From a virus (Duplodnaviria; Heunggongvirae; Uroviricota; Caudoviricetes), in IMG/VR virus record IMGVR_UViG_2651869691_000006, positions 1 to 13,453 of that record: a DNA stretch of 13,453 nucleotides. One strand, given 5' to 3'. Under the pieces are notes generated by a model. That model made no database searches and was not told the DNA's origin. It saw only the letters and a program-made list of their open reading frames with translations. Positions 1 through 13,453 of the stretch are shown here, piece by piece. The position numbers were made by a program, and so were the translations under genes. Position 1 is the first letter of the stretch. Each line of letters begins with the position of its first letter.

Positions 1-650
<650 letters not shown>

Positions 651-651
<1 letters not shown>

Positions 652-1199
652 TGAGGACGATTGAAGCCATGCAGCGACAACTTCTCGGCCTGATTGGGCG
701 GGCAGTGGTGAAAAGCATCAGTGCCGCCACGAAATGTCAGACCGTGGATGTGTCCCTGATTGCCGGTGAACCCAAAGCCGGGGTTGAACATCTTGAACCC
801 TACGGTTTTACCGCAAGGGCAAACAGCGGTGCGGAAGCGGTGGTGTTGTTTCCGGATGGCGACCGTTCTCATGCGGTGGTTGTTACGGTGTCGGACCGGC
901 GCTACCGCCTGAAAGGGCTGCAGACGGGTGAGGTGGCTGTCTATGACGATCAGGGGCAGTCTGTGACGCTGACCCGGGAGGGGATCGTGGTGGACGGTGC
1001 AGGTAAAACGATCACGTTTCGCAATGCGCCCAGAGCACGTTTTGAAATGGACCTGGAAGTGACCGGACAGGTGAAAGACCTGTGCGACTCCGGCGGCACC
1101 ACCATGTCAGCGATGCGGCTTGCCTATAACGGCCATCGTCACAGAGAGAACGGTCAGGGCAGTAACACCGACAAACCGGATAAAGCGATGGAGGCATGA
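651..1199 (+). CDS. Phage baseplate assembly/spike protein V-like (Mu gp45-like)
   Basis: 182-aa ORF; ATG overlaps the upstream stop; motif ...LQTGEVAVYDDQGQSVTLTREGIVVDG... typical of gpV-type baseplate spike proteins; size and position match Mu gp45. Confidence 0.7.
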
Positions 1200-1624
1200 T
1201 GGAACTGTGGCTGACGGTGAACGGTAAACGCACCTGCGCCAGCGCACCGCTGGATCCGCTGACCCGCGCCGTGGTGATTTCCCTGTTCACCTGGCGGCGG
1301 GCGGAGCCTGATGACAATGCCGACGTCCCGATGGGATGGTGGGGGGATACCTGGCCTGCGGTACAGAATGACCGTTACGGCTCCCGGCTGTGGCTGCTTC
1401 AGCGCGGCAAACTGACCAATCAGCTGGTGCAGACGGTAAGGGGGTATATCCGCGAATGCCTGCAATGGATGATTGATGACGGTGTGGTGTCCCGTATTGA
1501 TCTGGATATCCGCCGCACCGGGATTAATGAACTGGGTAACAGTATCACTCTCTGGCGTCGTGACGGACCGGTAATGATTTCTTTTGATGATCTGTGGAGT
1601 GCGATAACGCATGGCGGACAGTGA
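1196..1624 (+). CDS. Phage baseplate protein, Mu gp46-like (GP46/W-like)
   Basis: 142-aa ORF overlapping the upstream stop by 4 nt (ATGA); size and position between V-like and J-like genes match Mu gp46. Confidence 0.65.
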   Translation: MMELWLTVNGKRTCASAPLDPLTRAVVISLFTWRRAEPDDNADVPMGWWGDTWPAVQNDRYGSRLWLLQRGKLTNQLVQTVRGYIRECLQWMIDDGVVSRIDLDIRRTGINELGNSITLWRRDGPVMISFDDLWSAITHGGQ

Positions 1625-2669
1625 ATTTCAGCGCCCGACGCTGGCAGAAAATATCAGTATGCTCCGTAACGATTTATTCGCCAGGCTGGACGTCAGCGAC
1701 ACGCTCCGGCGCATGGATGAAGACGTGCGGGCAAAGGTGTATGCGGCGGCGCTGCATACGGTTTACGGTTACATCGATTATCTGGCAATGAACATGCTGC
1801 CTGACCTGTGCGATGAGTCCTGGCTGGCGCGACATGCTGCGATGAAACGGTGTCCGCGCAAGGGGGCCACGGCTGCCAGCGGGTATATGCGCTGGGAAGG
1901 TGTCAGCGATGGCCTGAAGGTGACCGCCGGGAGTGTTATTCAGCGCGATGACCTGGTTCAGTACACGGCAACTGCCGATGCAACCAGCGCCGGTGGTGTC
2001 CTGCGCGTGCCGATCGCCTGCTCAAGTGCAGGAGCGGTCGGTAACGCTGACGACGGTACGTCATTAATCCTGGTCACGCCGGTGAATGGTCTGCCGTCTT
2101 CCGGCGTGGCAGACACTCTGACAGGTGGATTTGATACTGAAGAGCTGGAAACGTGGCGCGCCCGCGTCATTGAGCGGTATTACTGGACGCCTCAGGGCGG
2201 GGCTGACGGGGACTATGTAGTCTGGGCTAAAGAAGTGCCCGGCATTACCCGTGCATGGACATACCGCCACTGGATGGGAACGGGGACTGTCGGTGTGATG
2301 ATTGCCAGCAGTGACCTGATTAATCCCATTCCGGAAGAATCAACGGAAACGGCGGCAAGACAACACATTGAGCCACTGGCCCCGGTGGCAGGCTCTGATT
2401 TGTATGTATTCAGGCCGGTGGCGCATAAAGTGGATTTTCATATCCGCGTGACGCCGGACACACCGGAAATACGGGCTGCCATCACCGCCGAGTTGCGTTC
2501 GTTCCTGCTGCGTGATGGTTATCCGCAGGGAGAACTGAAGGTGTCGCGTATCAGTGAGGCGATTTCCGGTGCGAACGGGGAATACAGCCATCAGTTGCTT
2601 GCACCGGCGGACAATATCTCCATTGCAAAAAATGAACTGGCGGTACTGGGGACGATTTCATGGACGTGA
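1611..2669 (+). CDS. Baseplate J-like protein (Mu gp47-like; JayE-like)
   Basis: 352-aa ORF overlapping neighbours on both sides; size and order (V-like, gp46-like, J-like, gp48-like, tail fibre) match the Mu/P2 baseplate wedge. Confidence 0.75.
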
Positions 2670-3244
2670 CAAACGATGATTACATCCATCTGTTGTCGGC
2701 ACTGTTGCCCCCCGGTCCGGCGTGGTCAGCCAGCGATCCGGCGATTGCCGGTGCGGCACCGTCATTAACCCGCGTTCATCAGCGTGCGGATGCCCTGATG
2801 CGGGAGCTGGATCCGCGCACCACCACCGAACTGATAAATCGCTGGGAGCGTCTGTGCGGCCTGCCGGATGAATGTATTCCCGCAGGGACACAGACCCTTC
2901 GCCAGCGTCAGCAACGACTGGATGCGAAGGTTAACCTGGCGGGCGGCATCAATGAGGATTTTTACCTTGCACAGCTTGCTGCCCTGGGCAGACCAGACGC
3001 CACCATCACGCGATACGACAAAAGCACGTTCACCTGCTCATCGGCCTGTACTGACGCGGTGAATGCGCCGGAATGGCGGTATTACTGGCAGGTCAACATG
3101 CCAGCCGCCACCAACACCACCTGGATGACATGTGGCGATCCCTGTGATTCCGCACTGCGTATCTGGGGCGACACCGTTGTCGAGTGTGTGCTTAACAAAC
3201 TCTGCCCGTCGCATACCTACGTAATTTTTAAATATCCGGAGTAA
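2660..3244 (+). CDS. ymfQ: Phage tail protein, Mu gp48-like / P2 gpI-like (YmfQ-type, DUF2313)
   Basis: 194-aa ORF ([22 protein letters not shown]...) directly upstream of the tail-fibre gene; same length and position as YmfQ of K-12 e14. Confidence 0.65.
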
Positions 3245-3247
3245 TCC

Positions 3248-3832
3248 ATGCATCGTATAGACACGAAAACCGCGCAGAAGGATAAGTTCGGCGCGGGTAA
3301 GAACGGTTTTACCCGTGGTAACCCCCAGACCGGCACACCTGCCACCGATCTGGATGATGACTACTTTGACATGTTGCAGGAGGAACTTTGCAGTGTTGTG
3401 GAGGCATCCGGTGCCAGCCTGGAGAAGGGGCGGCATGACCAGCTGCTTACAGCGCTTCGTGCGCTGCTGTTAAGCCGCAAGAATCCGTTTGGCGATATCA
3501 AATCGGATGGCACGGTGAAAACGGCTCTCGAAAACCTTGGTTTGGGAGAAGGTGCTAACTGGGTTATGTTACCTGGAGGAATGATAATTCAGCGTGTTTA
3601 TCTTGGATTTCCTATTGGCACTAATGTAAGACATATAACTTTCCCCCGGTCGTTTACAACAACGAACTATTCCATCTCAATTAACTGGAATGATATCGGT
3701 ACTGTAACAACTGAAACACAATCACCAGCAAATGTGGCGGTTGTTCATCAAACAAAATCATTAACAGGGGCCAGCATCTGGCAGGCAGGTCCCGGGGGAT
3801 TTAATGTGGACATTATAGCGGTGGGGTATTGA
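3248..3832 (+). CDS. stfP: Side tail fibre protein (StfP-like): constant N-terminal part fused to the currently resident variable C-terminal part
   Basis: 194-aa ORF with the widespread prophage tail-fibre N-terminus [47 protein letters not shown]...; the invertase crossover site lies inside it at 3525-3550 (codons ...[11 protein letters not shown]...). Confidence 0.8.
3525..3550. repeat. Left crossover site of a Pin/Hin/Gin-family DNA invertase (26-bp imperfect palindrome)
   Basis: CTCTCGAAAACC-TT-GGTTTGGGAGAA; the left half matches the hixL half-site TTCTTGAAAACC at 10/12 positions; the right half is the reverse complement of TTCTCCCAAACC; located at the constant/variable junction of the tail-fibre gene. 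Confidence 0.7.
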
Positions 3833-3833
3833 T

Positions 3834-4262
3834 ATGTACGTATGGAGCGCTAAAGCAAATGGCTTTTTCCCCATATCGGAGAAAGAAAAATTTGAGGCAT
3901 CAGGTCTGTGGCCTGATGATGGTGTAATAGTCAGTGAGGAAGAACATAAAAAGTTATTTATGGATATTCCACCAGGAAAACAGATTGGAACACTGAATGG
4001 AAAACCAGCACTGATAGATATTCCTCAGCCGACCAAAAAGGAATTAATAGCTATTGCTGAAGTTAAAAAATCCCAATTACGGGAAAAGGCTGACAGTGAA
4101 ATATCCTGGCGTCAGGATGCTGTTGATGCTGATATCGCAACTGATGAAGAAGCTACAACTCTCACCCAATGGAAGAAATACCGTGTGCTGCTGATGCGTG
4201 TTGATACGTCAACAGCACCCGATATTGAATGGCCTACGCCTCCGGCAGTTCAGGCCAGATGA
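3834..4262 (+). CDS. tfaP: Tail fibre assembly protein (TfaP-like)
   Basis: 142-aa ORF immediately after the tail-fibre gene; C-terminus ...DTSTAPDIEWPTPP shares the motif found at the C-terminus of the convergent tfaE-like gene. Confidence 0.75.
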   Translation: MYVWSAKANGFFPISEKEKFEASGLWPDDGVIVSEEEHKKLFMDIPPGKQIGTLNGKPALIDIPQPTKKELIAIAEVKKSQLREKADSEISWRQDAVDADIATDEEATTLTQWKKYRVLLMRVDTSTAPDIEWPTPPAVQAR

Positions 4263-4827
4263 CATCCGGCGCGGTGCTGGTATCTGTTGCCGTCACCGCG
4301 TCAATGTAATCCAGCACGGCGTTAAGTCGGGTTGTTTCTGCCTGAGTCAGTTTCCGTCCGGCCTGTAATTTCAGCTGAATCAGACTAATGGAAGCCATTG
4401 CTGCATCAATCAGTGACTGGCGCTGTGCTTCTGCCGCGTCTACTGCGGCACTGTGTTGTGCCTCAGTGTCTGTCACCCATTTCTCACCATCCCATTTATC
4501 GTATGGCGTTAACGGTGAAAGCGTGACATAACCGTCTTTGATGGCACCGATATAATCCACTGTAACAGCTGCACCATTTTCGATTGAGTAAACAGTCTCA
4601 TTGCGATGGTCTTCCTCATGGCTCCATCCCTTACCTGTAAATACCGTCACTCTTCCCGGAATGTTTTCGCCCGGGTCAATACCAGTTGAACAGGCGGGCA
4701 TACTTACGCCAGTATTAATATATTCATCAGACCAGCCCGTATACTCAGATGTTTCAGCATCATAATAAAAACAACGCATATCGCCCGGCACTGTAGCCAG
4801 CCCATTTTCATCAAAAACAGGTTTCAT
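4234..4827 (-). CDS. tfaE: Tail fibre assembly protein (TfaE-like), alternative copy inside the invertible segment
   Basis: 197-aa minus-strand ORF; C-terminus ...DTSTAPDVIWPELPEA; 3' end overlaps tfaP by 29 nt on the opposite strand; start overlaps the stfE stop (TAATG). Confidence 0.75.
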   Translation of the reverse strand: MKPVFDENGLATVPGDMRCFYYDAETSEYTGWSDEYINTGVSMPACSTGIDPGENIPGRVTVFTGKGWSHEEDHRNETVYSIENGAAVTVDYIGAIKDGYVTLSPLTPYDKWDGEKWVTDTEAQHSAAVDAAEAQRQSLIDAAMASISLIQLKLQAGRKLTQAETTRLNAVLDYIDAVTATDTSTAPDVIWPELPEA

Positions 4828-5309
4828 TATTTAGCCCTCACCAGAAAGTTAAATGCAATATTTCGCGGTCTGACAGCAACAAAATTCACACCATCACCCA
4901 CAGAGTTACTGGTGAAATTAAATCGTGAAAATCCTGGCTGATTTCCGGCGATGCCATCATGAAAGTTAATTGCGTGTCCCGCACCTTCGCCTATATTCCC
5001 GGCAAACTGAGAAAAGTTTGTAGCTGCCTGCCAGCTTAATAATTCGCGACCACCATCTGCACCTCGCCCGTCATCCCAGACACGAATGAAATCACCGCGT
5101 GCGTCAGGTAATGCCAACGCCGGAAACACTTTCGCCAGCACAGGGTAATCAGTGGCAGAAAATTTCGCCCCGTTGAACTTCAAAAACACCATACTGGACC
5201 AGCTGTCGATTACAGTATTTGGCATTGCAGCGGACGCCCAGAAGAACGGAACGCCAATAGCTGGAGCACCTTCTCCCAAACTGCGATGGCTCACTGCTGA
5301 TATGTGCAA
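4827..5309 (-). CDS. stfE: Alternative tail-fibre variable C-terminal domain (StfE-like), promoterless; expressible only after inversion fuses it to the stfP constant part
   Basis: Minus-strand frame open from 5321 to the stop at 4827-4829, with no ATG near its 5' end (TTG at 5309); begins ...HISAVSHRSLGEGAPAIG..., sharing the LGEGA junction codons with stfP. Confidence 0.65.
   Translation of the reverse strand: MHISAVSHRSLGEGAPAIGVPFFWASAAMPNTVIDSWSSMVFLKFNGAKFSATDYPVLAKVFPALALPDARGDFIRVWDDGRGADGGRELLSWQAATNFSQFAGNIGEGAGHAINFHDGIAGNQPGFSRFNFTSNSVGDGVNFVAVRPRNIAFNFLVRAK
5265..5293. repeat. Right boundary repeat of the invertible segment: inner half-site only
   Basis: AGCACCTTCTCCCAAAC at 5265-5281 is the exact reverse complement of 3540-3556; beyond it (TGCGATGGCTCA) neither the core dinucleotide nor an outer half-site is recognisable. 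Confidence 0.6.
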
Positions 5310-5503
5310 TCGACGGGGAGTTCAGGATCAAGCGATATCGGACTCATCCTCAACACCACCTGATTAATTTGGAGAGCGGGAGAAGGGAGATGCTACCAGT
5401 AGATGATGACGGTTACGGTTCTGCTCCCGCGATATTCGGGGTGATTACTTACATCATTAATGATGCGAGGAACGCGGAGTTTGATGATTGTCCGGTGATG
5501 TAA

Positions 5504-6172
5504 TCATATTGGCGTTATTAGTTCGGCGCCCTGATTTTTCACATTCCCGACGGCACGCGTTACGGCGTGCCATATAAATTTATCAGCCGGTACAACACCG
5601 TCGGCTGCAATTTCCGCTGCTTCTTTCCCTCCAACATCCTGCCTCATCCATTCACGCGCGGCTTCCGGTAGCAGTACCAGTGGTCGTCTGTCGTGAATAT
5701 CAACCAGTCCTTTGTCAGCTGCAGCTGTAACTATCAGGAAACCTTCTGCTTCATCTCCACGTTCGAATGGTGTGCTGCCGATCGCCGCCATAAAAATCGG
5801 CTGACCGTCTGCCCGGTGAATAAAGTAGGGTTGTTTTTGGTCGCCTTCCTTTTTCCACTCATACCATCCATCAGCAAAGCAAATTGCGCGGCCATGCTGC
5901 CAGAGTGGTTTAAACATTCTGCTGGTGGCAGCAGTTTCAGACCGTGCATTAATGAGCGGCGGTTTATCCCACCAACCGGGGGCGTATCCCCAGATAACTG
6001 GATCAAGATGCAACTGCTCATCACGTTCGCTCAGAAGCAGAACTTTTGTTCCTGGCGCTACGTTGAATCTTCCGATGGGTTCTGGATCGTATGGAATATC
6101 GCGTTCTGATTCATCAGCGAGAAGGGCAAGATAATCTTCACGGGTCATTGACTGTGAAAAGCGTCCACACAT
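5504..6172 (-). CDS. SOS-response-associated peptidase (SRAP, YedK/HMCES family; abasic-site processing protein)
   Basis: 222-aa ORF starting MCGRFSQS (conserved Cys2 nucleophile of the SRAP/DUF159 family); GGAGG Shine-Dalgarno 5 nt upstream of the ATG. Confidence 0.8.
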   Translation of the reverse strand: MCGRFSQSMTREDYLALLADESERDIPYDPEPIGRFNVAPGTKVLLLSERDEQLHLDPVIWGYAPGWWDKPPLINARSETAATSRMFKPLWQHGRAICFADGWYEWKKEGDQKQPYFIHRADGQPIFMAAIGSTPFERGDEAEGFLIVTAAADKGLVDIHDRRPLVLLPEAAREWMRQDVGGKEAAEIAADGVVPADKFIWHAVTRAVGNVKNQGAELITPI

Positions 6173-6406
6173 AGAAACCTCCAGCCGTATGTCAGACTGA
6201 AAGTATAGGGCAGTTAGAAAAAGTGGTGCACACCGTTAAAGATTTAAAAGGAGCATGTAAGGTAAATCGGAATGATGGTTTTGTGAATTGATGAATTCCG
6301 AAAGTGAAAAAGATACTTAATCATTGTGTGCTAGCGATACGGGGGCAACATTTGACGGGGTTTTTCCCCTGTAATTCCCCATTGCTTCCCCGTTCAGAAA
6401 ACAGGC

Positions 6407-6431
6407 AAAAAAACCAGCCGTAACAGGCTGG
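6407..6431 (-). terminator. Rho-independent terminator (minus strand) within repeat copy 1
   Basis: On the minus strand: CCAGCC-tgttac-GGCTGG hairpin followed by TTTTTTT. Confidence 0.7.
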
Positions 6432-6446
6432 TTCTTCGAGGATTTT

Positions 6447-6491
6447 TGGTCGGCACGAGAGGATTTGAACCTCCGCCCCCCGACACCCCAT
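6447..6491 (-). pseudogene. tRNA-Pro 3' fragment (anticodon loop to CCA end), not a complete tRNA
   Basis: Reverse complement reads AUGGGGUGUCGGGGGGCGGAGGUUCAAAUCCUCUCGUGCCGACCA: T-arm GGAGG-UUCAAAU-CCUCU, acceptor 3' strand CGUGCCG, discriminator A, CCA. This matches from memory the 3' half of an E. coli proline tRNA (anticodon loop AUGGGGU). No 5' half is present upstream. Confidence 0.65.
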
Positions 6492-6569
6492 AGTGTCGTG
6501 CTAATATTCTGATGGCCTATATGCGTCTACAGTAAGTTGATAGCATCATTCGTCGGTCGCTTCGTAGTC

Positions 6570-7385
6570 TCACATACGGATAAAATTTTTTCTATTGATT
6601 TTGTCTCTATCAGAGCCATAAATGATGGTTGCAAAAAAACGACCTAATTCAAGATGGTGGAAGTGATTATCTTTTGCTTGAACTGTCATTGAGTCTAATA
6701 TGTTATAGATGCATTCTATGATATGAATAACTAATAAAGTGCGATAACCAGCAAGCATTTCACTTCTTTTAAGTAAATAATTTAAATCCCCTGCAGAGTT
6801 TATATGGTTTCTGTCTTCATCATAATATCCAAGCACATAGCATGGCAGTGTTTCACCATAGCTTCGGTATTGCTCGCATTTTTTATCAATTATATTTTTT
6901 TGTCTTTTTGTTAATATTTTATCGTAAATGCTCTTATCGATTTCATTATACCATTGCTTCATGGGATCATTGTCGTTGTCATTAGTAATGAAATCAATAT
7001 TACTATATCTTGATGAATTTGCAAAATTAGTTAACAACTCCATCACTCTGTAGTGAATTTCATTTAAGCCAGAGGGAGAATCAACTCTCTCAATGACTAG
7101 GTTGAATAACTTGCTTAAGTTATGACCGTAATCTCTTAATTTTTTGCGTGATGTATATTTTCCATTTTTATTATAATCATCAAGCATAAGGCAAAGTTTC
7201 ATAAGCCTTTCTAATCCTAAACTGATGCCGGATAATGCTTGAAAATACAATCCTCTACTTGCAAAATTTGCTTTCCTTAGGGAAGTGAGCCCTATGCCTA
7301 ATAATTGTCTTGAAAAGTCAACCTCATCAACAAATCTTCTGTATTTTTCATCCATAAAAACCTCAGTCAGCCAATTAATATTCAA
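6570..7385 (-). CDS. Hypothetical protein, 271 aa, AT-rich horizontally acquired cargo gene; function unknown (candidate defence/abortive-infection-like)
   Basis: Long minus-strand ORF in a region that appears strongly AT-rich by inspection, in contrast to flanking DNA; Lys/Asn/Ile/Tyr-rich protein; contains KLRDYGHNLSKL (R-x3-H); followed by the terminator in repeat copy 1. Confidence 0.7.
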   Translation of the reverse strand: MNINWLTEVFMDEKYRRFVDEVDFSRQLLGIGLTSLRKANFASRGLYFQALSGISLGLERLMKLCLMLDDYNKNGKYTSRKKLRDYGHNLSKLFNLVIERVDSPSGLNEIHYRVMELLTNFANSSRYSNIDFITNDNDNDPMKQWYNEIDKSIYDKILTKRQKNIIDKKCEQYRSYGETLPCYVLGYYDEDRNHINSAGDLNYLLKRSEMLAGYRTLLVIHIIECIYNILDSMTVQAKDNHFHHLELGRFFATIIYGSDRDKINRKNFIRM

Positions 7386-7577
7386 GAATGATTTCTATAA
7401 AGAACTAATCTAGTTAAATCATCTGATGTAATTAGTATTACAATACCATCAGACGACATTGAAGCAGTATTGTGCCTTATCTACCCTATGTACGTCCATT
7501 GATAAAAATCTGCGCTTTTCGCAGTGGGGTCAATCGTAAGCTAATTTCCCCATTGCTTCCCCGTTCAGAAAACAGGC

Positions 7578-7603
7578 AAAAAAAACCAGCCGTAACAGGC
7601 TGG
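7578..7603 (-). terminator. Rho-independent terminator (minus strand) within repeat copy 2
   Basis: Same CCAGCC/GGCTGG hairpin followed by an 8-T run on the minus strand, positioned downstream of the 322-aa gene. Confidence 0.7.
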
Positions 7604-7618
7604 TTCTTCGAGGATTTT

Positions 7619-7662
7619 TGGTCAGCACGAGAGGATTTGAACCTCCGCCCCCGACACCCCAT
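7619..7662 (-). pseudogene. tRNA-Pro 3' fragment (copy 2), acceptor stem mutated (CGUGCUG)
   Basis: Reverse complement reads AUGGGGUGUCGGGGGCGGAGGUUCAAAUCCUCUCGUGCUGACCA. Confidence 0.6.
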
Positions 7663-7858
7663 AGCGGTGATCTACCTTCTCATCAAGGGTAACCATGTGC
7701 CAGAAGCAGCCCTTGCGCACATTGGATGGGTATCAAATAATGAAGTAGGTCAACTTTATTAAATAAAATTGTGTTGGTTCAGATGATCGAATGGGAATGA
7801 ATAGTTTATTACTTTTGGTGACCGCAAGCGCGATCACCTTCGATTTGGTGGCAATTAC

Positions 7859-8827
7859 CTAGAATGATGCACAATCTTTAAGCTCTTTTTCTAGTTGTTC
7901 AACCAAGTCACAGCATTTTTTGATAACATCTTTAACTGACTCTGAATCTAACTTATGAAAATTACCATTTTTTGTTTTACCTGCTCGATGAACTAAGTCA
8001 TGCCTAATTAACACGCTTTTATAAACTTCTGTGAAAACAGGGAATTTAATACCAAAGGTATCTCGATACATGCCACTTACTTTTGGCAGATTATGATAAA
8101 GAACACTCTTCATAGACTCTATCGCTTGAGACTCTATTTGTTCATGCCTTATAAATAATTCAGAAAGTAAGAATTTTTCTGTATTGTAATCTTTGAAGGT
8201 TTCAACAAAATTTCTCAAATTAGTTTGGCTACCATGAATTAGGGAAATAAATCTGTCACATAAATATGTTTCCAAGGAAGTTATTGTATTGGCATATAGC
8301 ATATACGACATTTGTATTTGTAAAGTGCTATCAATTTTTAACTGAGCATCATTTAGTTTTATGGCGTTCTGCATACTATTTTGGAATGTCATATAGACAT
8401 CTCGTTCAGATAGCGTTCGATCATCAGAGTACTGCATATCAATAACATCTAGAATGCGCTGTTCAATTAATGAAGGTCTATTCAACTGTAATATATCTAT
8501 AGTCGCATGTCCTCGCTCAGTTAAACCTTCTAAATATCCATTTTTATTTTGTTTTATATGTTCTGAAAAACTTTCATTTAAAGGATTTAGAAGTAATGGT
8601 TTGCCATTTTCATCGAGAGGAAACTGATCTTTTTTAATCATGCTACATGCCTTACAAGCGATGAGCAGGTTGTCTGTAGCATCTTGGAAGTCAGTATACT
8701 TTGATTTTGGGAAAAAACGATCAACATCCGCCATCAATGGTTCATAAAGTTTAGTGCCACAGTAAGCACATTGATGCTTAAACTTCTCCCATAGTTCAAG
8801 TTTAAACGTTTTATAATTCTTATTCAT
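7859..8827 (-). CDS. Hypothetical protein, 322 aa, AT-rich cargo gene: N-terminal HNH-like zinc-ribbon domain with non-canonical catalytic positions plus C-terminal domain with an R-x4-H motif (candidate nuclease/defence protein)
   Basis: N-terminus has C20-x2-C23 ... D36-R37-FFPKS ... N53-LLIA-C58-x2-C61, the spacing of an HNH motif but with Arg where the DH histidine normally sits; C-terminus contains IRHDLVHRAG (R275-x4-H280); region appears AT-rich by inspection. Confidence 0.7.
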   Translation of the reverse strand: MNKNYKTFKLELWEKFKHQCAYCGTKLYEPLMADVDRFFPKSKYTDFQDATDNLLIACKACSMIKKDQFPLDENGKPLLLNPLNESFSEHIKQNKNGYLEGLTERGHATIDILQLNRPSLIEQRILDVIDMQYSDDRTLSERDVYMTFQNSMQNAIKLNDAQLKIDSTLQIQMSYMLYANTITSLETYLCDRFISLIHGSQTNLRNFVETFKDYNTEKFLLSELFIRHEQIESQAIESMKSVLYHNLPKVSGMYRDTFGIKFPVFTEVYKSVLIRHDLVHRAGKTKNGNFHKLDSESVKDVIKKCCDLVEQLEKELKDCASF

Positions 8828-9271
8828 TGAATAGTTCCTTTATATTCTTGACTTGATTGTTTGTTTGCCAATTTAAGCCAAAGACACACGACTTTAATTG
8901 GGCTTGAATCATAGTTATATGTAATCTATTAAGCAAACACTTTTCATTAATAGCATGAGATAACGCTCAATTCTTTATTTTCCGGGAGTGTGTAACTTCA
9001 TATCCACCTCTCACTCACAGCGTACGTTATTGGCGAAAAATTTAGTTAAGCCATTGATAGTTTGTGAAAACACGCATGATTTAAAATCCCTTTGCCGTGA
9101 AGGGGCTGATAGGTACAGGCACTTGTTTTTGCCCTCTAAAACGGTTATCAAAACCAAAAAACATACATTGATAATCAATAGGTTAGGGGAAAGATAAAAG
9201 CCAGTTGATTTACAATAAAATTATAGGATTATTTTTATTTATCATGCGGTTGTATATGAACCATCTAACTA

Positions 9272-9436
9272 CTGCTGCGCCATATGGGCTGGACTGAAGC
9301 CGCAGACCTGATTGTTAAAGGTATGGAAGGCGCAATCAACGCCAAGACCGTAACCTATGACTTCGAGCGTCTGATGGAAGGCGCTAATCTGCTGAAATGT
9401 TCAGAGTTTGGTGACGCGATCATCAAGAACATGTAA
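9272..9436 (+). pseudogene. icdC: icd 3'-terminal fragment (icdC): displaced original 3' end of isocitrate dehydrogenase, marking prophage attR
   Basis: Translates in frame to [54 protein letters not shown], the C-terminus of Icd; no upstream icd sequence (in-frame TAA at 9266-9268). Confidence 0.85.
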
Positions 9437-9460
9437 TCTCTACATGTGTTAAATATTGAA

Positions 9461-9488
9461 ACGGGCGTATAACACGCCCGTTGTTTTT
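9461..9488 (+). terminator. Rho-independent terminator of icd
   Basis: ACGGGCGT-ataac-ACGCCCGT hairpin followed by TGTTTTT. Confidence 0.75.
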
Positions 9489-9697
9489 ATAAATATGTTA
9501 ACCGTTATAAAATAACGTATCAAAAGTCAAGTGAACACATTTCAAATATCAATTTGATCGTATTGGTCTGGTGATTATTTATGGGGAGCAATAAAAAGAC
9601 AGTATTAATCATCCATAGGGATGGTCTCTGCACTTTTATTTCCATTATGCTAATGCCTTACTGAATTATGAAGCATTTCTTAAGCTCCCAACTTTAG

Positions 9698-10102
9698 CTA
9701 GATTAATGGTTTATTATTTTCTACATCTTCAATATATAAAAGCGTATTATCAATGGCGTAGTAACTGCGTTTGTTATGATTAACATCAGTAACCCACCGG
9801 AAAACGCCTGCGCCTGCCAGTGTTGAACAGTATTCCCGAAATGTAGATTTTCCGCGAATATGAAGCAATGCGGCCTCTTTTATTTTAGCTGGGTTCTTGG
9901 TCGTACTAACTTTTAACAGGTTCCTGGTTCCTCTTAATAACAAAACCGTGTCATCGTGAGTAATAATTCTGATGTTATCCGTAGCCAGATAATAAATGTA
10001 ATGTGCAATACGGTGATGTTTTAATTCTGAATAAAACCAGGAGAAGTTTTGCTCTTTTCTCACTTGCTCAAACATCTTTTGAAAAACAACGACCTGATCC
10101 AT
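9698..10102 (-). CDS. ycgX: DUF1398-family protein YcgX
   Basis: 134-aa ORF with the GVFRWVT motif; same size and position (between icdC and bluR) as K-12 ycgX. Confidence 0.8.
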   Translation of the reverse strand: MDQVVVFQKMFEQVRKEQNFSWFYSELKHHRIAHYIYYLATDNIRIITHDDTVLLLRGTRNLLKVSTTKNPAKIKEAALLHIRGKSTFREYCSTLAGAGVFRWVTDVNHNKRSYYAIDNTLLYIEDVENNKPLI

Positions 10103-10322
10103 CAGGATAATAACCTCTTGTTAGGTGTGAGACTGCGTAGTGTGCACGATCGGTTTTACCACTTCAATCTGGTCTGTCCTTTGGCTGTGATATGTACAAA
10201 GTGTGAAAGGGGGATTACCTGAATTCTCCCGGTGAGCATTTTGCAACGGACCAGCTCCGCTACAAACGCTGTTGTGGGTTCAGATTATAACATTCTGTCT
10301 AAGGGGCGGGATAAAGGTGAAT

Positions 10323-11054
10323 TTAGGGGGCATGAAAGATGACTTTATAACCTTGCTCACCCCAGTGTTGTAAAAGTTCGTTTTGCCTTCTCGTTGGTGC
10401 CATGCCTGTCCAGACAATCAATGTTTGCGTTGGGAACAGTTCCGGGCGCGGCGATTCAATGGGATCAGCAAGAACAGAAATGTGCCATCCTGACAATGAT
10501 AAACGCCATGCTTCCAGCCACAATCGTGCTCTCTCTTCAACATTCCACGCCATCAGAATGGCCTCTTTACCGGGCTTACGGCGCATTTCGAAAAGTGAGG
10601 CCGCTGCGTATTCAATTAATGTGCCGTCAAACATACTGCTCATAATGCGGGAGGTGTTGTGATCAAGCACGAGACGCTGGCGAACAGGAAGGTAAACATG
10701 ATTAATCAATTGATCTACTGGGTACTCTCGACCCAGTGAAATAATTCGCGCGCGTAGTTTGGCTGGATTAGCCATACGAAGAATTGACATCATCTCTTCT
10801 TGCAGGCGGCTCCAGTCATCTTGCGTATCCTGGCTGGTAGTTTCCAGTAATGCTTTCACTTTGCCTACAGGAACGCCATTACTTATCCAACGCTTGATCT
10901 CTTCGATGCGTTGTATGTCTTCTTCATCAAAGAGTCGGTGTCCGCCTTCACTGCGCTGTGGTTTTAACAAACCGTAGCGGCGTTGCCAGGCCCGGAGAGT
11001 GACAGGATTAATCCCGCAACGTTCAGCAACATCACCAATGCTGTAATAAGCCAC
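10323..11054 (-). CDS. bluR: MerR-family transcriptional repressor BluR (YcgE)
   Basis: 243-aa ORF; N-terminal MerR helix-turn-helix ([42 protein letters not shown]); synteny with bluF and ycgZ. Confidence 0.85.
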
Positions 11055-11103
11055 AATTCCTCCTTGCGGTCATAAATCTCCGTCGCCTCTACACGACCCA
11101 ATA

Positions 11104-11141
11104 ATACTTTGTACAATATACGCTGAAATTGTACAAAGTAT
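11104..11141. promoter_or_regulatory. Perfect 14-bp inverted repeat with 10-bp spacer between bluF and bluR (candidate operator or RNA hairpin)
   Basis: ATACTTTGTACAAT-atacgctgaa-ATTGTACAAAGTAT; each arm contains the self-complementary octamer TTGTACAA; lies 50-87 bp upstream of the bluR start. Confidence 0.35.
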
Positions 11142-11258
11142 AAATAAGATTTCAGCTAAATTGGATGAAACATTATTTTTAATGTGGATTAAATTAAAAC
11201 ATAACGCATTCATTTTCGCGATGATTTCCAGAAATCATGCGAAATAATGTGCTGAAAA

Positions 11259-12470
11259 TTATTTTTTCTCCGGCCACGCAACTGAAGGGATACCATTCAA
11301 TTTAGCTTTGGAAAACAGATCTCCCTGAAACATCTCAATTCCTGCAGATTCAAGCCACATCCACTCTTCTGGTGTTGCCACGCCCATAGCAGAGACTTGA
11401 ATTTCAAGTGATGTACAGCATTTCATGATCGCCTGAATAATTGCCTGCCGTGGTCCGCTTTTATGAACATTGGTAATCAATTCCTGACTGATTTTAATTC
11501 TGTCAGGCTGGAAGCGTGACAGGAGTAACAAACCAGCAAAACCTGCGCCAAAATGATCAATTGCTACACTGATACCGGCAGCCTTTAGCGATTTAACCGC
11601 TTCGGCAAACTCATCAAACCGAGATATGACTTCACTTTCAGTAAATTCAACGATGATTTGTTCAGGCACCAGAGCATTGGCCTTTATTTCATCAAGTAAA
11701 AAAGAGACTGCGTCAGGCTCGTTAACCAGGGTCATAGGTAATAGATTGATTGAAATCATTTTATCACCGAGCTTAAGTGCGTGTGCCATCGCAAATGCAA
11801 GCGCCTTACTTTTGAGATCCGCTGTGTAGATTTCCTCGTCTTTACGCTGCCCAACCGCTATAGCTGACGGGCTGTCTTCATTTTTTTGCACAATGGCTTC
11901 AAAAGCGATTATCCGCCGCGATAAAGGGTCGACAATAGGATGAAAGGCAAAGTGGTCGTTTATATTTGATGAAAGGGTACAAGAATCAAGTTCTTTATCA
12001 GATCCGTCAGCGATAAAAAGCCAGGAGTCTTCAGCAGGAATCTCGAAATAGGTTGATTGTTCAGTTGCAAGGACAAAAGTACGAAAAAATTGTAGCGCTC
12101 TGTCATCATAAGTTAGCTGAAATTTTGATGTGCCTTTGTCGAATACGGCCTGTAAAACGTCATCTCGCTCGTGCAGGCGTAAATCAAATAATTCCATTCC
12201 TGCTTTGCCAAAACGGCGAGCAGGCGCGTAATCGCACAACAGTTCAACAATATTATAGTGCCGTGGATCCTGGCATATGGCCCGATATATCATTTGAACC
12301 TGTTCTTCCGGACCTTCCAGAAGCTGGAAAAAATGAGAACCATTAAACAGTAAGATCCCTGTTACGTCAGACCGCATGTTCCTGCGATTTGCTATCGAAA
12401 CCATTTCTTCGATTTTTTTGACAGGTTCGTCGTCACGTATATGGCTACGATAAATAAGGGTGGTAAGCAT
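11259..12470 (-). CDS. bluF: Blue-light sensor BluF (YcgF), BLUF-EAL protein
   Basis: Start chosen at the internal ATG giving MLTTLIYRSHIRDDEP... (403 aa) rather than the TTG at 12548 used by the ORF track; N-terminal BLUF domain, C-terminal EAL-like domain; divergent from ycgZ. Confidence 0.85.
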   Translation of the reverse strand: MLTTLIYRSHIRDDEPVKKIEEMVSIANRRNMRSDVTGILLFNGSHFFQLLEGPEEQVQMIYRAICQDPRHYNIVELLCDYAPARRFGKAGMELFDLRLHERDDVLQAVFDKGTSKFQLTYDDRALQFFRTFVLATEQSTYFEIPAEDSWLFIADGSDKELDSCTLSSNINDHFAFHPIVDPLSRRIIAFEAIVQKNEDSPSAIAVGQRKDEEIYTADLKSKALAFAMAHALKLGDKMISINLLPMTLVNEPDAVSFLLDEIKANALVPEQIIVEFTESEVISRFDEFAEAVKSLKAAGISVAIDHFGAGFAGLLLLSRFQPDRIKISQELITNVHKSGPRQAIIQAIMKCCTSLEIQVSAMGVATPEEWMWLESAGIEMFQGDLFSKAKLNGIPSVAWPEKK

Positions 12471-13335: not shown

Positions 13336-13406
13336 AATTTCATAAGTAAGATGAGAGGGTAATGACTCCAACTTATTGATAGTGTTTTATGTTCAGATAA
13401 TGCCCG

Positions 13407-13453
13407 ATGACCTTGTCATGCAGCTCCACCGATTTTGAGAACGACAGTGACTT
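13407..13453 (+). CDS. Possible 5' end of the next operon gene (position expected for ariR/ymgB), truncated by window end
   Basis: Only frame open to the window end after the stop at 13398-13400; ATG at 13407 (MTLSCSSTDFENDSD...); weak Shine-Dalgarno; not verified. Confidence 0.2.
   Translation, partial: MTLSCSSTDFENDSD

Follow-up and report, generated by a model that had tools for sequence, protein, structure and literature searches.

A 1502-bp deletion that very probably locked the Pin-type tail-fibre switch of an e14-like prophage

Enhancer-dependent serine invertases act on two 26-bp sites in inverted orientation, each of which is bound by a dimer, and make a staggered cut through both strands at the central dinucleotide, which is the same at both sites. 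The stretch of E. coli prophage DNA analyzed here (13,453 nucleotides in all; hereafter the window) contains a tail-fibre segment that has a complete site of this kind at its left end and a broken one at its right end. Can this segment still invert and, if not, how did it lose the ability? The initial annotation had described it as a Pin-type segment with a degenerate right site and no neighboring invertase, probably fixed in its orientation unless an invertase acts in trans. From the comparisons described below we consider it very probable that an e14/Pin-type switch was frozen by a 1502-bp deletion that cut the right crossover site together with pin and thereby fixed the segment.

Anatomy of the tail-fibre segment

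The whole 13.5-kb window was scanned with the Pin/Gin/Hin-type crossover consensus TTCTCNNAAACCNNGGTTTNNGAGAA. Allowing ≤3 mismatches, the sole match was 3525-3550, with 1 mismatch; in the shuffle control, any match was seen in 0/200 shuffles. The same 26-bp sequence is present in K-12 e14 and in the prophages of fEC.1, CDF6 and AH01. The description of this left site as a good Hin/Gin-like palindrome is well founded. A second crossover site of the sort seen in multi-inversion Min-type systems was not detected in or near the segment (whole window, ≤3 mismatches). The features of the locus are listed below in window coordinates.

3248-3832, + strand: predicted expressed tail-fibre gene, 194 aa; constant part 3248-3538, variable C-terminal part 3539-3832, the latter within the segment
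3525-3550: left crossover site, intact 26 bp, CTCTCGAAAACC TT GGTTTGGGAGAA, with the core TT at 3537-3538
3539-5281: formerly invertible P-type segment (very probably fixed), ~1.74 kb, in the orientation that has the Gp53-like_C variable part in frame
3834-4262, + strand: tail-fibre assembly gene partnering the expressed variable part, 142 aa (Caudo_TAP, E 6.6e-33)
4234-4827, - strand: alternative assembly gene, 197 aa, silent in the window orientation (Caudo_TAP, E 3.7e-27)
4827-5281, - strand: alternative variable fibre C-terminus, silent; its open reading frame extends to a TTG at 5309, past the junction
5265-5281: right repeat arm; its last 11 bp, 5271-5281, are what is left of the right crossover site (inner half-site, originally 12 bp)
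5281/5282: deletion junction; the 1502 bp lost correspond to 6283-7784 or 6282-7783 of the fEC.1 locus (L001), as the C at 5281 may derive from either flank
5282-5503, + strand: start-less 3′ remnant of an S24-family peptidase gene, named from the annotation of the equivalent DNA in relatives

The segment has the anatomy of a switch: the constant part of the fibre gene runs up to the crossover site, and the variable ends are arranged as mirror images, each with its own Caudo_TAP gene. Residues 108-194 of the 194-aa fibre gave a weak match to Gp53-like_C (E 4.8e-5; 24.3 bits, the Pfam cut-off being 24.9), and the fibre is identical in 6/6 deletion-bearing loci. The fibre region aligns with K-12 ymfQ-stfP at 96% identity up to the left site. 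Joining the alternative C-terminus in frame to the constant part by a computed flip yields a 249-aa fibre, and exactly this fusion is present in AH01, where its coding sequence (5110-5856) is mislabelled 'integrase'. The open reading frame at 4827-5309 (- strand), which crosses the junction and would encode 160 aa, is an artefact of the deletion.

The two ends of the segment are joined by an inverted repeat of 17 nt, 3540-3556 and 5265-5281, which is 100% complementary; chance alone would give ~1.5e-4 pairs of this kind in 2.3 kb. The perfect 17-bp repeat noted in the initial annotation was therefore recovered; strictly, 11 of its bp belong to the 12-bp inner half-site and the other 6 adjoin it. 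To the right of 5281, where the base adjoining the core, the core dinucleotide and the outer half-site had been reported to differ, all three are in fact missing. The window reads ...CCCAAAC|TGCG at this junction, the AA core seen on the + strand of relatives being deleted, and by eye the sequence now to the right of 5281 agrees with the intact site at 3/15 positions. Of the two sites, the locus thus retains the left one in full, with its TT core, and 11 bp of the right one, whose core is deleted. Position 5293, previously given as the right limit of a segment starting at 3525, is only nominal, since nothing of the right site survives beyond 5281.

The deletion and its endpoints

When window positions 3000-6500 were compared by megablast with 5,426 complete E. 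coli genomes, fEC.1 and CDF6 alone covered the entire query; they did so in separate pieces spanning ~1.5 kb beyond the query length, and all other matches ended at 5281. Window 78-5281 corresponds to 1079-6282 of the fEC.1 locus L001, and 5281-9487 to 7785-11991. Identity to the e14-like prophages at icd of fEC.1, CDF6 and AH01 is 99.7-99.8%. Beyond the position equivalent to 5281, these three prophages continue with C-AA-CGTTTATGAAAA, the remainder of the crossover site, which is identical to that of K-12 e14. The DNA absent from the window starts, in fEC.1 and CDF6, with what completes the crossover site: the final base or bases of its inner half, the AA core and its outer half, CGTTTATGAAAA. 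Next come a recombinase gene (L001 6352-6903), dinI and a small partial open reading frame, and the last piece is ~307 nt from the 5′ end of an S24-family peptidase gene that is frameshifted (full coding sequence L001 7478-8007). The missing recombinase comprises 183 aa and has both a Resolvase domain (E 3e-50) and an HTH_7 domain (E 3e-14); one common protein accession covers the Pin of AH01, fEC.1 and CDF6, which is 88% identical to K-12 PinE.

For the DNA at 5281-5381, at least eight complete genomes carry the annotation S24 peptidase. Pfam returned no domain match for the remnant read across the junction (5261-5503), and its assignment therefore rests on the annotation of the relatives. 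Because it retains part of a 26-bp site and a gene fragment that has no start, we regard the short form as derived, that is, as the product of a deletion and not of an insertion in the relatives. The broken right site and the missing invertase have one cause, since a single 1502-bp deletion took both; on the sequence evidence, the "degenerate" site and the absent invertase are two faces of this one event. In the initial annotation the right site was correctly judged to be non-functional; its condition reflects truncation by the deletion that removed pin, not base drift.

The intact right site reads TTTTCATAAACG-TT-GGTTTGGGAGAA on the complementary strand in K-12 e14, fEC.1, CDF6 and AH01. According to the initial annotation, its reading would be refuted if functional right sites had the same asymmetric sequence. 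They are indeed asymmetric in their outer half (TTTTCATAAACG versus CTCTCGAAAACC), but the inner half and the TT/AA core are intact, unlike in the window. The right site in the window has neither a complete inner half nor the core, and its asymmetry is therefore abnormal.

At its left end, the deletion starts 1-2 bp from where Pin cleaves, serine invertases cutting at the center of the site (PMC2724282), and the microhomology at the junction is just 1 bp. Both features would fit a deletion begun by Pin itself, through an abortive double-strand cut at the right site followed by trimming of 3-4 nt on the segment side and ~1.5 kb on the pin side and by microhomology end-joining; in addition, a statement in PMC1904230 reports Hin cleavage in vivo. 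What that source states about rearrangements and in vivo cleavage holds nothing directly comparable on invertase-induced deletions, however, and the position of the breakpoint is a single coincidence noted post hoc, with a roughly 1-6% chance, depending on the interval allowed, of falling within ±2 bp of the core. We consider this origin unlikely, though it retains a small chance; it concerns only how the deletion arose and is compatible with a locked segment. Deletion catalyzed by Pin through a precise exchange between the right site and a quasi-site was also considered and is ruled out, because such an exchange should have left C, not the observed T, at half-site position 12 and the right endpoint is not site-like (≤8/20 consensus matches, the background mode being 5).

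Our preferred reading is an illegitimate deletion. The ancestral layout would have consisted of the constant 5′ part leading up to a 26-bp site, a ~1.74-kb segment with two fibre sets, a second site and pin. The 1502-bp deletion, which occurred in an ancestor of this strain, began 1-2 bp inside the right inner half-site and ended in the S24-peptidase gene. Lost were the end of the inner half, the core and the outer half of the site, dinI, the small open reading frame and pin, the last presumably together with the Fis-dependent enhancer. The 194-aa Gp53-like fibre and the 142-aa assembly protein would be left as the sole expressible pair, and the other C-terminus and the 197-aa assembly gene would be permanently silent.

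Inversion in intact relatives and in deletion carriers

The intact system switches, as seen from AH01 and from the occurrence of both orientations among complete genomes. In AH01 a segment that is 99.7% identical lies the other way round, and the exchange falls within the common TTGGTTTGGGAGAAGGTGCT. Among the complete genomes that cover the left junction in one piece, 43 are flipped and 20 are window-type, an artificial 'flipped' left junction having served as the query for the flipped count. In K-12 cultures, both orientations of the e14 P segment coexist (PMC4272514), and PinE drives its inversion, as does PinQ from the Qin prophage acting in trans (PMC12529663).

A pin gene occupies the expected place in fEC.1, CDF6, AH01 and K-12. 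The earlier observation that no invertase lies beside the segment was confirmed by domain scan and tblastn, and extends to other carriers of the deletion. No Resolvase domain was found in the scanned open reading frames of the window, and tblastn with two Pin proteins gave a best E value of 9 there. Tblastn with Pin likewise gave no match (E ≤ 1e-3) in the six 20-kb carrier loci (L005-L010, ±10 kb around the junction) or in a 4.5-kb metagenome locus (L011) with the same junction. By this search, none of these loci encodes a Pin-like protein. The recombinational enhancer is normally found within the invertase gene, towards the 5′ end of its coding sequence (PMC2724282), and this cis-acting, Fis-bound element is also required, according to 1985 work as cited in PMC3798978. 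Its usual location is gone with the whole pin gene, and the enhancer was presumably lost too; a scan of the relatives' pin for Fis motifs at 48-bp spacing pinpointed no element, the motif being too degenerate.

The deletion junction is absent from the complete genomes (0/5,426 junction-spanning) and from the GTDB species representatives. The 160-aa junction open reading frame was nevertheless found in NCBI draft assemblies, on 18 contigs, GCA_017014495.1 and GCA_038449665.1 being among the assemblies that carry the deletion; this query was orientation-specific, and flipped forms are invisible to it. All six draft loci that were retrieved have the junction and the left site, and over 3200-5700 they are identical to the window save for one SNP at 4658. 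To the right, three of the six run into ymgL-ycgX-bluR-bluF like the window, and the other three adjoin a lambdoid prophage. An orientation-neutral pattern of the junction led to one metagenome contig, in the window orientation. A flipped form with the deletion would read CATCGCAG-TTTGGGAGAAGGTGCT and then AACTGGG; this flipped junction was not found in the GTDB representatives. Each deletion carrier seen thus has the window orientation (18 by the orientation-specific query, one by the neutral pattern). The window itself starts at the end of an IS100 copy, which cuts a Mu GpP-like baseplate gene, and finishes at the end of an IS1 (IS1-annotated matches). Since the other carriers lack these IS copies, the deletion predates the IS insertions. 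Collectively, the sequence comparisons indicate that the deletion is real and inherited.

The enzyme, the core and the outer half-site, all of them required, are gone, presumably together with the enhancer, and the segment is therefore very probably fixed. The earlier expectation of a fixed orientation gains support from the truncated right site, the lost pin and the single orientation in the carriers seen. Homologous recombination across the 17-bp repeat would be negligible. In K-12, a pinE mutant is locked and deletion of either P-segment repeat prevents inversion even when PinQ is over-produced (PMC12529663).

Useful inversion by an invertase acting in trans (PinQ, PinR or another prophage Pin/Gin homologue) is the alternative to a fixed segment. 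It draws on the trans inversion of the e14 P segment by PinQ, which is real when both sites are intact (PMC12529663), on the inversion of Phi4 in EC958 despite its truncated invertase (PMC4134206), and on the 11-bp inner half-site remnant with its adjoining 6 bp, which persists as a perfect inverted repeat. The right remnant, however, has neither core nor outer half-site, and what replaced them has the low agreement with the intact site given above; there is no second site in the window to take its place, the cis enhancer was presumably lost with pin, and the K-12 repeat deletions block even over-produced PinQ. The uniform orientation of the sequenced carriers also speaks against it. We therefore regard rescue by a trans-acting invertase as very unlikely, and the segment would be unable to invert even if such an enzyme were supplied; the proviso attached to the initial annotation can largely be dropped, as the core, the outer half-site and, presumably, the cis enhancer have been lost.

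That the missing 1.5 kb is an assembly artefact, as the resemblance of the window to a short-read contig bounded by IS copies might suggest, or that the relatives gained the pin region by insertion into an ancestral short form, is barely credible, given an identical junction within unique sequence on 18 NCBI draft contigs and one metagenome contig, a truncated site and a start-less S24 fragment that mark a derived state, and a full site plus pinE in K-12 e14.

Relation to K-12 e14 and to other switches

The window carries the end of an e14-like prophage integrated at icd: it lies beside a second copy of the icd 3′ end and comprises the ymfQ-stf-tfa-tfa-stf′ module together with an HNH gene at the McrA position. 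The prophage shares its chromosomal place with K-12 e14 (icd ... icd′ fragment, then ycgX-bluR-bluF), and a partial icd coding sequence is annotated at the equivalent place in fEC.1 and CDF6. Window 9138-9487 is 84% identical to the K-12 icdC region, and 1882-3558 is 96% identical to jayE/ymfQ/stfP. The K-12 order is ymfQ, stfP, tfaP, tfaE, stfE′, pinE, mcrA, icdC, then iraM ... ycgX, bluR, bluF, and the switch region follows the same succession in both prophages: ymfQ, stf constant part, left site, variable part/tfa, tfa/variable part, right site. The left 26-bp site and the right inner half-site of K-12 e14 match those of the e14-like prophages studied here.

The differences from K-12 e14 are equally clear. 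The window prophage lacks pin, the right core and the right outer half-site, and its variable fibre and tfa alleles are different, with only ~316 bp of the tfa overlap region aligning (93%). The stfP/tfaP/stfE/tfaE labels of the initial annotation are consequently positional names: they are right for gene position and do not carry over to sequence, because the variable alleles differ from those of K-12. Conversely, K-12 e14 has lost a Mu-like baseplate/tail module still carried by the window prophage, and the intact relatives carry dinI, an S24 peptidase gene, a SRAP gene and another open reading frame between pin and the HNH (mcrA-position) gene.

Mu G/Gin, P1 C/Cin and Salmonella H/Hin (Din family) likewise use 26-bp sites in which two 12-bp half-sites flank a 2-bp core. 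Mu and P1 have mirror-image alternative fibre C-termini with assembly genes, as in the window, and in the Gin/Cin/Hin systems the invertase gene lies immediately outside the segment, as in the intact form of the present switch. Those systems are complete, whereas the window has one full site plus 11 bp, no enzyme and no enhancer-bearing gene. Prophage Phi4 of EC958 too has a tail-fibre switch whose own invertase is defective (truncated); it keeps both 26-bp sites, however, and has been observed in either orientation, which presumably reflects a trans-acting invertase (PMC4134206). Such rescue is not expected in the window, unlike in Phi4, because one of its sites is destroyed.

Taken together, the locus represents a known kind of system, the e14 P segment with Pin, that has decayed and very probably become locked. 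This is ordinary prophage decay, its one curiosity being the proximity of the breakpoint to the cleavage position, and annotation should present the locus as the locked remnant of an e14 P-type switch and not as phase-variable and active. In K-12, inversion of the e14 P segment was recently tied to defence against phage T2 (PMC12529663); the lineage that carries the deletion would be unable to use such a switch and could provide natural locked controls. The breakpoint 1-2 bp from the cut position is a hint that invertase cuts may seed deletions. If a start by Pin were true and general, the deletions by which prophage tail-fibre alleles become locked would cluster at the crossover sites of invertase switches, and anti-phage alleles of the StfE type might possibly be locked in the same way.

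Fibre genes around the switch

The tail-fibre switch is the Pin-type invertible segment at 3539-5281, probably locked by the 1502-bp deletion with its junction at 5281/5282. In the intact prophage of strain AH01, in which the segment lies in the flipped orientation, the constant fibre part is fused to the alternative variable end (L004, 5110-5856), and this fusion was labelled 'integrase' by the RefSeq pipeline. The same label, wrong for what is a tail-fibre protein, is attached to the flipped-orientation fusion in many other genomes. Over 3200-5700, the window differs from the other deletion-bearing loci at a single base, position 4658, which is G in the window vs A in all six of them and falls within the silent gene for the 197-aa assembly protein.

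Repeats, a putative cassette and the mcrA position

Two features were located to the right of the switch:
6570-7385, minus strand: unannotated ORF of 271 aa, between the copies of a direct repeat
7859-8827, minus strand: protein of 322 aa at the position of K-12 mcrA, annotated as 'HNH endonuclease' in relatives

The direct repeat is ∼122 bp long, and its copies (6372-6493 and 7542-7664) are ∼97% identical. Both contain the hairpin CCAGCCGTAACAGGCTGG and the sequence TGGTCGGCACGAGAGGATTTGAACCTCCG, which is similar to tRNA gene 3' ends; ARAGORN found no tRNA. A small cassette may have integrated here, with the repeats as its att-like scars. The 322-aa protein yielded no above-threshold Pfam match, and its NCBIfam similarity to retron/PtuB-type and Cas9 HNH domains was weak (E 6.6e-8, far below the cut-off). 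Alignment of its coding region with K-12 mcrA was not possible at the DNA level.

At 9441-9487, the window and the related draft genomes are without iraM and ymgK (∼815 bp in K-12). The K-12 block is bordered on both sides by an imperfect direct repeat of ∼46 bp containing the hairpin AAACGGGCGTATAACACGCCCGTT. A lambdoid prophage (int, xis, RecT, Gam, KilR) joins at exactly this point in three deletion-bearing relatives (L005, L006 and L009).

Insertion sequences at the window edges

The final 92 bases (13362-13453) diverge from all relatives and presumably come from one end of IS1, with its terminal inverted repeat; matching genomes have annotated IS1 transposases. Positions 1-77 are the end of a copy of IS100 (IS21 family), and as many as 26 copies of this end occur in one E. 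coli genome. The window has the look of a contig assembled from short reads and delimited by IS copies. The IS100 copy breaks a Mu GpP/gp44-like baseplate gene, leaving the C-terminal 186 aa (ORF 91-651) of a protein of 359 aa in relatives. The prophage in this strain is therefore defective, independently of the switch.
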